Shown here piece by piece: positions 34,860 through 36,543 of a DNA stretch of 58,876 nucleotides. The DNA is from an uncultured Alphaproteobacteria bacterium (GTDB lineage Bacteria; Pseudomonadota; Alphaproteobacteria; RF32; CAG-239): NCBI GenBank assembly GCA_934271195.1, contig CAKQRB010000070.1, positions 1 through 58,876 of the forward strand, written 5' to 3'. The position numbers were made by a program, and so were the translations under genes. The notes beneath the pieces were generated by a model that had not been told where the DNA came from, did not search any database, and was given only the letters and a program-made list of their open reading frames with translations. Position 1 is the first letter of the stretch, and every line of letters begins with the position of its first letter.

Positions 34860-35702
34860 TCAGCCGCCCCAGCCGCGCCCTTCTGTCGTCTGTTCGTTCC
34901 AACCATAGTCAGAAGCGGACGGGCTGCCCTGCGTGCCGTCGGCGTTATAGCCGTTTCTTTCCGAAGTTTCTTCGTTCCAGCCAAAGTCTGAAGCCGAAGA
35001 ATTGTCCGTGCCGTTTACAATATTCTGCAAATCTTTATTTAATGCATTCACATCCAGTGCTGAGCTTTCCGAACCCGCAACCGGTCTGCGGCTTGCAGAA
35101 GCATCGCCCGTAACAACGACTTCCGGCAGTTCGTAAGACTGTGTCTCAGGGTTCCATACCGGTTGGAGATTACCTCCCTGAGACGGCTCGGCGTTATAGC
35201 CGTTTCTTTCCGAAGTTTCCTCATTCCAGCCAAAGTCTGAAGCCGAGGAATTGCCCGTGCCGTTTACGATATTCTGCAAATCCTTGTTCAGTGCATCAAC
35301 GTCAGGCGCAGAGCTTTCGGTTTCAGGGATTTTCCCCGCATCCAAAGCGCCGCCGATATTATCCTGACCGTTTCTTTCCGAAGTTTCTTCGTTCCAGCCA
35401 AACTTACCTGCCGCACTGTCAATCCAATTGTCAGTATTTACTTTATTACCGGCTTTATCAATTTCGGCGTTGATTTTGTCATCAAGACCGGTCTTGTCCA
35501 ATATTCCGACGCCGCTGACGGTGTCTTTGGCAGCATTCAAAGCCTCTTGTTTTGCTTTTTCCAAGGCTTTTTTGGCTTCTTCTTCGGCTTTTTTCTTAGC
35601 TTTTTCCTTGCCTTTATTCCATAAATCATTCAGCCAGCCGCCGCTGTTTTCTTTCTGTTTGGCTCCTTCATCACCCTGCGCGTTGTTGACATTGTTAACC
35701 AT
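34860..35702 (-). CDS. GWNEETSERNG-repeat ORF. Probably not an independent gene but the out-of-frame 3' continuation of the pilin paralog at 35935..36543
   Basis: There is no convincing SD before ATG 35702. The same frame stays open upstream to the G10 tract at 35938-35947. The motif LNKDLQ(N/D)(I/M)VNG occurs both upstream and downstream of the listed Met. Confidence 0.5.
   Translation of the reverse strand: MVNNVNNAQGDEGAKQKENSGGWLNDLWNKGKEKAKKKAEEEAKKALEKAKQEALNAAKDTVSGVGILDKTGLDDKINAEIDKAGNKVNTDNWIDSAAGKFGWNEETSERNGQDNIGGALDAGKIPETESSAPDVDALNKDLQNIVNGTGNSSASDFGWNEETSERNGYNAEPSQGGNLQPVWNPETQSYELPEVVVTGDASASRRPVAGSESSALDVNALNKDLQNIVNGTDNSSASDFGWNEETSERNGYNADGTQGSPSASDYGWNEQTTEGRGWGG
34941..35400 (-). 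repeat. Long in-frame direct repeats encoding (A/S)xDVxALNKDLQNIVNGTxNSSASDFGWNEETSERNGYNA
   Basis: Copies at 34941-35075 and 35190-35320 are near-identical, with a 249-nt period. Partial copies lie at 35368-35400 and near 34880. Confidence 0.8.
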
Positions 35703-35934
35703 ATCCTGCAGGTCTTTATTCAGATCCTCAACATTCGGCGTTCCGCCAGTGCCGCCAATCGTGCCACCATTTAATAAACCGCCAAGATTGAAAGATGAAT
35801 TATTATTTCCATTTGTGTTATTCTGATTATTACCATTACCGGAATTGCCAGAACCGGTATTGGTTGTACCGTTTGTACCACTGCTTTGATTGGTGCCGGA
35901 GGCACCTCCCGCCGTAGTTGTTCCGCCATAAGAA

Positions 35935-36543
35935 CTACCCCCCCCCCGTTGAGCATGTTCCAGTTGTATTATCCCAAGTTCCGCCGCAGGTTACACGGTT
36001 GGTTATAGAACCGTTAAGATTTCTTAATTTAACGCAGTATTCGGCGTAATAATCATTGCTCGACGGATTGTCACAGTCTTTTGTTTCGCTATTATTATTG
36101 TTATTGTTGTTATTTCCTTCCTCTGCCACCGTACCGCCGCCAATACTTCCACCCGTTCCGTCAACACTGCCGTCACCGCTCAGATAATTGCCGTAATCCA
36201 GCAAGGTTGAATGTTTGCTGGTGCCGGTAAAGTCATCAATAAACAAGCCCATAACGGAGAGCAAAAACAGCGAAATAGCAATATTGGCAAACCATTTCCA
36301 GCTGATTTTATTGAAAATCGCCATAAAGGAAAAGCCGATTAATCCGAAACCGGCCAAAATATAAACAACAAGTTTGATGTCTTTTAAGCTGGAAGCCGCT
36401 TTGTCACGCACCTTTTCAAAGACAGAACCGCTTGCCGCAAAGGCATCTTGCGGACAGATAGCAAAAAAAGCAATTGCCGCGATAAAAAGAAAAAGGTTTG
36501 ATTTCAGCAATGATTTTAACTTTAACATGGCCGCCTCCAACAA
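35935..36543 (-). CDS. virB2: VirB2/TrbC-like pilin paralog 3, with a Gly/Asn/Cys-containing C-terminal extension truncated right after a G10 tract
   Basis: Signal peptide ...PQDAFA-AS. Two hydrophobic helices (LVVYILAGFGLIGFSFMAIF..ISWKWFANIAISLFLLSVMGLFI) align with the two upstream pilin paralogs. The extension includes N8 encoded by (ATT/GTT)8 at 36091-36114. Confidence 0.7.
   Translation of the reverse strand: MLEAAMLKLKSLLKSNLFLFIAAIAFFAICPQDAFAASGSVFEKVRDKAASSLKDIKLVVYILAGFGLIGFSFMAIFNKISWKWFANIAISLFLLSVMGLFIDDFTGTSKHSTLLDYGNYLSGDGSVDGTGGSIGGGTVAEEGNNNNNNNNSETKDCDNPSSNDYYAEYCVKLRNLNGSITNRVTCGGTWDNTTGTCSTGGG
35938..35947 (-). repeat. Homopolymeric G10 tract (C10 on the plus strand) at the junction of two ORFs
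   Basis: Read directly: ...agaacta CCCCCCCCCC gttgag... The stop codon of the upstream ORF (35935-35937) immediately follows the tract. Confidence 0.95.

Follow-up and report, generated by a model that had tools for sequence, protein, structure and literature searches.

A poly-G tract between a VirB2-family pilin and a repeat module: a candidate slipped-strand switch in uncultured gut Alphaproteobacteria

Contig CAKQRB010000070.1 (assembly GCA_934271195.1) represents 58,876 nucleotides of DNA from an uncultured Alphaproteobacteria bacterium of the CAG-239 lineage and was analysed over its whole length (hereafter the window; positions are 1-based on the forward strand). It encodes three tandem TrbC/VirB2-family paralogs, and the third of these genes contains a run of ten guanines (G10) immediately followed by a stop codon. 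We propose that this tract is probably a two-state slipped-strand switch, which would alternate between a short pilin and a fusion of the same pilin with a C-terminal repeat module. A phase-variable pilin extension had been predicted from the letters of the window alone; it is supported by the occurrence of G9 and G10 alleles in near-identical backgrounds and by constraint on the frame downstream of the tract.

Tract alleles of the third VirB2 paralog

The third paralog is the last gene of the tandem and is located upstream of a VirB3-like gene and virB4. Judged by profile match, hydropathy and operon position, its upstream part is a TrbC/VirB2-family pilin; fused relatives of the protein score 28.1-32.6 bits with PF04956, whose curated cut-off is 27.9 bits. 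The short form begins with a segment resembling a signal peptide, continues with two hydrophobic helices and closes with a Cys-rich linker ending ...CSTGGG, in agreement with the original prediction of a VirB2-like pilin with signal segment and two hydrophobic helices. Hydropathy places hydrophobic segments at residues 4-32, 48-75 and 78-101, and a low-confidence AlphaFold2 model of the fused relative P0001 contains helices at residues 2-24, 52-71 and 77-100. A PDB sequence search with the pilin core returned noise and no relative. The start codon, ATG at 36528, is preceded by GGAGG at a distance of 5 nucleotides.

A G10 run closed by TAG had been predicted to terminate this gene, and both elements were confirmed on the minus strand, where the sequence reads ...TCA ACG GGG GGG GGG TAG (Table 1). 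Removal of one G or addition of two (G9 or G12) results in a single open reading frame (ORF) ending at 34860, which encodes 555 amino acids from ATG 36528 or 561 from the listed TTG (about 560 had been anticipated). Addition of one G results in a missense tail of 61 amino acids in the window. The tract is the sole G/C homopolymer of at least 8 nucleotides in the window. In shuffled sequences, 0.06 G10 runs are expected per window and 5 of 100 shuffles contained at least one, so the rarity of the run is by itself borderline. In about 415 kb of related loci, G/C runs of this length occur only at the orthologous site.

Orthologues, for which G9, G10 and G11 alleles had been envisaged, were compared at 19 loci from independent gut metagenomes and metagenome-assembled genomes (MAGs), the window included. 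The tract is G10 and the gene split in 15 loci (window, L003, L004, L007, L008, L009, L059-61, L064-68 and L069), and it is G9 and the gene fused in four (L001, L002, L062 and L063). L007 originates from water deer, L008 from human (MGYG-HGUT-04444) and L009 from mouse; L069 was located through a DNA-pattern scan of JGI metagenomes, the other three matches of which were due to chance. A protein scan of JGI metagenomes detected no relative. The tract is directly followed by TAG or TAA in 15/15 G10 loci. G8, G11 and G12 were found in none of the 19 loci. The third-frame tail peptide had no match in a database of 5.8 billion protein clusters (representatives only), which gives no sign of G8 or G11, and the listed members of ten clusters contain no such form either.

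Both lengths occur in closely similar backgrounds. L062 (G9) and L004 (G10) are 99.957 % identical over 6921 nucleotides and differ by two substitutions and a one-base gap; the substitutions may be assembly noise from a population of mixed tract length at about 10x coverage. L063 (G9) is 99.7 % identical with L067 and L068 (G10) over about 2 kb, and L001 (G9) is identical with L007 (G10) across 200 nucleotides downstream. Both lengths were also delivered by each type of assembler, namely Logan (L001, G9; L067/68, G10) and SPAdes-style (L062, G9; L004 and L065, G10).

The same two forms are found at the protein level. A search with the frame-corrected query retrieved full-length P0001 (590 amino acids, 77 % identity, 100 % coverage), P0002 (564 amino acids) and P0003 (599 amino acids, annotated as TrbC/VirB2 in an NCBI MAG), together with P0004 and P0005, which comprise the C-terminal half only. 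Cluster listings add full-length P0082, P0085, P0086, P0089, P0091, P0094 and P0096. Public data contain at least ten distinct fused proteins, 555-647 amino acids in length, and full-length forms read ...CSTGGGSSSG... across the junction, as expected from G9. Short forms of 197-220 amino acids, ending with ...TGGG (G10), are numerous and identical or near-identical in many contigs. By eye, the first 200 amino acids of P0094 (long) are the same as those of P0090 (short). The split pilin gene and the downstream "hypothetical protein" annotated in MAGs are best read as one gene.

Alleles that lack a repetitive tract are present in both frames. In L006, which encodes P0003, the tract is interrupted in frame (ACG GGG GAA GGT AGT; GGGGGAAGG) and the product is the fused protein of 599 amino acids, so that L006 is a putative locked-long allele. 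Conversely, L054-56 (P0033) have a non-repetitive short frame (ACT GGA GGT GAG TAG; CTGGAGGTGAG), behind which deletion has left only about 100 nucleotides of the module before the normal 3' end of the gene; L057 and L058 are devoid of the module as well. Since these lineages possess the short form only, the short pilin appears to be viable alone and a product in its own right. The module would seem to decay once the ability to switch back is lost.

These alleles bear on the possibility, also raised in the original prediction, that the true gene is always G9 and that G10 calls are artefacts of sequencing or assembly. Homopolymers of this length are error-prone, L004 carries two odd substitutions beside the tract at about 10x coverage, and Logan contig L005 (positions 1-23 are Nextera adapter) begins about 20 nucleotides downstream of the tract, where assembly broke at the homopolymer. 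We nevertheless consider such an error very improbable. Fifteen loci, drawn from different studies, hosts and assemblers, carry G10 calls, and identical contigs from three samples are among them. The pipelines concerned, all of which yield consensus assemblies, also call G9. L054-56, which have a non-repetitive sequence in this frame and have lost the module, show that the short frame exists as a genuine biological state.

The linker that precedes the tract varies among relatives. Three different upstream linker modules all end exactly at the tract, which therefore marks a junction between modules of a mosaic gene. C-x2-3-GG-x-W-x5-7-C motifs are found in the linker and in extensions of distant relatives; they would fit a disulfide-bonded, extracytoplasmic location. 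At about 35985-36010 (minus strand), the window encodes NRVTCGG and the 99 % identical L059 encodes NCVTRGG; this swap of Cys and Arg would alter the disulfide pattern. The linker also contains a run of eight Asn codons, which had been predicted as a second unstable repeat. The run is present, and its length and composition vary in frame among relatives (e.g. NNNNNNNNKNN, NNDNNNNNNKNNDN). Its role as a second switch was rejected, since a unit of three nucleotides cannot shift the frame.

The downstream frame and its repeat module

In 15/15 G10 loci, the +1 frame behind the tract is open for 310-467 codons up to the same ...GRGWGG end and contains no stops. Pairwise ratios of nonsynonymous to synonymous substitution rates (dN/dS) of this frame amount to 0.11-0.25. 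Comparisons between G10 lineages at dS 1.0-1.3 gave 0.11-0.13 (window versus L003, 0.11; L007 versus L008, 0.13). Because the frame is open and dN/dS is low, also between G10 lineages, the module can be regarded as translated and under purifying selection. As judged from sequence comparison, the perfect G run has persisted over long divergence.

It follows from the same data that a pseudogene recently derived from a longer pilin gene, another option considered originally, is hardly credible. The window allele is indeed split, and the module is genuinely gone from L054-58. When relatives were examined for decay of this frame, none was detected in the 15 G10 loci; dN/dS stays within the above range also for G10 pairs at dS >1, and intact G9 alleles exist in near-identical strains.

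A further candidate was an independent downstream gene, corresponding to the listed ORF of 280 amino acids that starts at ATG 35702. As predicted, this start has no usable Shine-Dalgarno sequence, the sole purine-rich stretch before it being AGGA at a distance of 1 nucleotide, and an LNKDLQ motif (the first of three) extends across the supposed gene boundary and spans the ATG. Starts assigned by gene finders to the C-terminal halves differ between contigs and are not conserved; several of the called halves read ...AQRGGGSSSG, that is, the +1 frame running back through the G10 tract. Lacking a Shine-Dalgarno sequence and a conserved start, and with LNKDLQ spanning the ATG, the independent gene was rejected.

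The module consists of a spacer rich in Gly, Asn, Ser and Thr, a Lys/Glu/Ala-rich helix, cassettes with LNKDLQ, GWNEETSERNG and WNPETQSY-EVVVTG, and the GRGWGG end; overall it contains 15 % Gly and 14 % Asn. Of the GWNEETSE repeats noted in the original prediction, three copies are present in the window, along with one GWNEQTTE. Module length varies between 310 and 467 amino acids across strains through gain and loss of cassettes of about 83 amino acids (LNKDLQ..GWNEETSERNG..WNPETQSY..EVVVTG), as seen when the window is compared with L003, L008, L009 and P0089. Cassette number constitutes a second, in-frame layer of variation. The EVVVTG motif (35106-35123) recurs as (Y)ELPEVVVTGDA or GEVVVTAKD in extensions of near and distant members of the family (P0006, P0008, P0011, P0015); presumably it resembles a TonB box or the "EVVVTGYG" of SusC.

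The module appears to be restricted to this lineage. Used as query, it had only three matches among 1.84 billion representative proteins, two of which belong to the same gene family; the third, P0080, is an unrelated repeat protein that matches only weakly. No domain was detected in the module or in extensions of distant relatives by sequence searches against Pfam and PDB.

A terminator-like hairpin follows the stop codon of the long form (Table 1) and is retained in L054 and L057 despite deletion of the module. No comparable site was found after the stop of the G10 frame, and the module thus appears to be co-transcribed with the pilin core. The hairpin, being situated between the pilin gene and virB3/virB4, may also act as attenuator of the pilin operon.

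The proposed switch and its rivals

In the proposed switch, translation of a G10 allele would stop right after the tract and produce a short pilin precursor of 197 amino acids, composed of the VirB2 core and a small Cys-rich linker. A G9 allele would be read on, in the same gene, into the lineage-restricted module of about 360 amino acids. Whenever replication removes or adds one G, a lineage would flip between two heritable states, and switching may be frequent and reversible within populations. Pilin termini face outward in structures of F- and T-pili; since the Cys-rich linker also fits an extracytoplasmic location, the C-terminal module would be expected to end up outside the cell on the pilus. 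There it may serve contact or adhesion, and the short state may avoid its cost, such as recognition by antibodies or phages and steric load on the pilus. Alleles with G8 or G11 would be selected against because their frame adds a missense tail of 61-126 amino acids, as opposed to the G10 frame, which stops at once. Three features of contingency loci are found together at this site: a homopolymer of at least 8 nucleotides in frame, a frame-toggling length polymorphism in close relatives, and an intact, selected out-of-frame ORF.

Several observations weigh against this proposal. Tract lengths were taken from consensus assemblies. The two substitutions between L004 and L062 are both located within 8 nucleotides upstream of the tract (L004 2811-2818; TGT ACA CCG, in L062 TGT TCA ACG), where the assemblies are noisy. 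G10 outnumbers G9, with about 10 versus 4 strain backgrounds and about 40 versus 14 contigs. A freely running tract might show more lengths than two, and the lack of G8, G11 and G12 fits selection for G10 itself. Finally, the AlphaFold2 model of P0001, calculated from an alignment of 13 rows, has a predicted local distance difference test score of 35.5; display and function of the module are what we infer.

The main rival is programmed recoding on G10, which could also act alongside switching at the DNA level. A fixed fraction of ribosomes (prfB-like +1/-2 slip of tRNA-Gly with UAG or UAA waiting in the A site) or of RNA polymerases (slippage on the run) would then enter the downstream frame, so that a single G10 allele would give rise mainly to short pilin and to some long pilin; G10 would be the selected allele and G9 alleles would be secondary mutants. 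The predominance of G10 is consistent with recoding, as is the fact that about 60 contigs and the protein database contain neither G8 nor G11. In every G10 locus the stop directly follows the slippery run (GGG GGG GGG UAG/UAA), the G run resembles a Shine-Dalgarno sequence as in the prfB site (AGGGGG-N3-CUU UGA), and purifying selection acts on the downstream frame when G10 lineages at dS of about 1 are compared. On the contrary, programmed frameshift sites are normally invariant, whereas in-frame G9 is common (4/19 loci, at least ten proteins) and occurs in the same backgrounds as G10. The in-frame interrupted allele of L006 likewise indicates that an arrangement requiring a frameshift is not conserved in orthologues. 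Moreover, the stop is followed by either U or C, the RNA fold around the tract is not significant (z = -1.86; 11/200 shuffles fold as well), and G/C runs are poorer substrates than A/T runs for bacterial transcriptional slippage. We therefore regard recoding as unlikely.

A combined reading, which we consider rather unlikely, assigns two levels to the tract. DNA slippage would give rise to G9 cells producing the long form only; G10 cells would make a small, fixed fraction of it through slippage of the ribosome (+1/-2) or of transcription at GGG GGG GGG UAG. Pili would be built mostly of short subunits with sparse module-bearing ones, and G10 would be a selected allele that sets stoichiometry. 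If true, this would explain both the dominance of G10 and the occurrence of G9 and G10 only.

Ordinary strain polymorphism would imply that the indel is real and flips on evolutionary time scales only, strains being stably long or short. Three 100 % identical contigs from three samples (L064, L067, L068) are all G10, as are both L059 and L060, which would fit stable strains. We still find this reading quite improbable, since flips are seen between backgrounds only 0.04-0.3 % apart and the perfect G9/G10 run is kept at dS of about 1, even though GGN codons could encode the same glycines. Besides, runs of 9-10 G are intrinsically hypermutable, as is known from contingency loci.

Secretion-system context and comparison with known systems

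The three paralogs belong to a locus for a type IV secretion system (T4SS; Table 1). Paralogs in related loci were assigned by a parse based on a clade-specific VirB2 core profile. The first paralog is the conserved first gene of the tandem. The second, slightly below the Pfam cut-off, matches the clade-specific profile with E = 4.5e-20, and its position is conserved in relatives. The gene at the VirB3 position is conserved between the third paralog and virB4 in all related loci. It is followed by genes for VirB4, three proteins without assignment, a protein of 1399 amino acids, two VirB8 proteins and CagX/VirB9, then by genes for a beta-flower protein of 1037 amino acids, a TrbI/VirB10 protein of 1542 amino acids and a VirB11-like ATPase. 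A TrbL/VirB6 domain is also encoded in the window; neither relaxase nor coupling protein was seen there. The locus looks chromosomal; a distant-mode DNA search of a plasmid collection with the three-paralog region gave no match, and ABC-transporter genes flank the region.

Table 1. Features of the third VirB2 paralog and its surroundings in the window
Feature	Position	Strand	Remarks
virB2 paralog 1	37005..37412	-	listed ORF 135 aa, 128 aa in relatives; PF04956 (TrbC) 39.8 bits
virB2 paralog 2	36550..36966	-	138 aa; PF04956 (TrbC) 26.8 bits, slightly below cut-off
virB2 paralog 3, short form (G10 allele)	35935..36528	-	197 aa; PF04956 34.5 bits
(AAT/AAC)8 run	36091..36114	-	encodes N8 in linker
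G10 homopolymer	35938..35947	-	
TAG stop of G10 frame	35935..35937	-	directly after tract
C-terminal module, open +1 frame	34860..35939	-	359 codons and stop
LNKDLQ motifs	35706-35723, 35274-35291, 35025-35042	-	three copies
GWNE(E/Q)T(S/T)E repeats	35376-35399, 35208-35231, 34959-34982, 34881-34904	-	repeat region 34881..35399
WNPETQSY..EVVVTG	35106-35156	-	one copy
Terminator-like hairpin	34798..34830	-	14-pair stem and T-run, just after long-form stop
VirB3-position gene	34419..34709	-	96 aa; no Pfam match
VirB4/TrbE ATPase	31994..34525	-	PF03135 (CagE_TrbE_VirB) 43.4 bits

Several T4SS components are oversized. This concerns TrbI/VirB10 with its beta-flower repeats (PF21785; 12735-17363, minus strand), the beta-flower protein (17366-20479, minus strand) and a fusion of M23 peptidase with TrbL/VirB6 (1028 amino acids; 591-3677, plus strand). 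The latter gene is adjoined by a gene for a protein of 326 amino acids with two HTH_3/Cro-C1 domains (3802-4782, plus strand), which may regulate the locus. Genes for a type IVb pilus form a cluster at 37717-49947 (plus strand), with transcription divergent from that of virB2; it encodes TcpQ, secretin, PilO, a PilB-like ATPase, a PilC-like platform protein and two pilins of the bundlin/PilS type. The TcpQ gene and its neighbour encoding 562-612 amino acids occupy the same position in related loci.

In a genome scan, 47 GTDB species representatives shared the arrangement of three paralogs; each of them is a MAG of an uncultured gut alphaproteobacterium (hosts include human, mouse, deer and rabbit). 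In distant gut Alphaproteobacteria (L025-L053), the third paralog is a giant of 1000-1700 amino acids, for example L027 3206-7483, L031 1231-6276 and L034 1156-6273. Its VirB2 core is embedded at residues of about 350-770 between long N- and C-terminal extensions, in which no Pfam domains were found. The presence of VirB2 pilins with long extensions, up to about 1700 amino acids, in these 47 representatives challenges the notion that VirB2 is a minimal pilin with some 100 residues.

Homopolymer phase variation is textbook matter for a few pathogens; to our knowledge, hardly any descriptions of it exist for gut commensals that are uncultured, and full-text searches retrieved no example concerning a type IV secretion pilin. 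If the proposed switch is real, a lineage found in guts of humans, mice, deer and other animals toggles an exposed part of a secretion pilus. The state of the tract is readable from metagenomes, so that switching could be tracked, culture-free, against host, time and antibody or phage pressure.

The closest parallels are the poly-G/poly-C contingency loci of Campylobacter jejuni, Neisseria, Haemophilus and Helicobacter. They likewise have 9-10 G in a row inside a gene for a surface structure, one-base toggling among near-identical strains, an intact out-of-frame ORF and conservation of the tract across lineages. In contrast to these loci, the tract described here resides in an uncultured gut commensal alphaproteobacterium whose examined DNA contains no further tract of this kind, it lies at a domain junction some 200 codons into the gene, and only two lengths were seen. 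Furthermore, its "off" frame is not null and encodes a complete, apparently functional short pilin. In Neisseria pilC, a G tract in the signal-peptide region switches a pilus-associated adhesin fully on or off. There, too, a homopolymer decides whether the pilus carries an adhesive component; PilC, however, is a separate protein of type IV pili and not of a T4SS, whereas the variable part here is the C-terminal module of the pilin itself.

Rearrangement of repeats in Helicobacter pylori CagY tunes Cag type IV secretion. It resembles the present case as heritable variation of a surface-exposed T4SS component in a chronic coloniser of animals. Tandem VirB2 paralogs are likewise known from the multi-copy VirB2/TrwL families of Anaplasmataceae and Bartonella (for VirB2 copy numbers see PMC2764437). 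In CagY and these families, the source of variation is in-frame recombination or the choice among paralogs and not a homopolymer that shifts the frame, and their VirB2 proteins are not known to have a long extension. Full-text searches of the literature retrieved no account of a VirB2 that is phase-variable or extended, nor of the secretion system of this clade; where a Neorickettsia paper speaks of phase variation, the context is a different one.

The last parallel concerns prfB, which encodes RF2 and contains a programmed +1 frameshift site. Both sites have a putatively slippery P-site codon directly before an in-frame stop and require a +1 shift, and the G run may correspond to the G-rich Shine-Dalgarno-like element upstream of the prfB site, but in the present case in-frame alleles are common in relatives and the context after the stop is not conserved. 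Taken together, the switch mechanism is a known one, while its target, a VirB2-family pilin, and its design as a switch between isoforms appear to be new.

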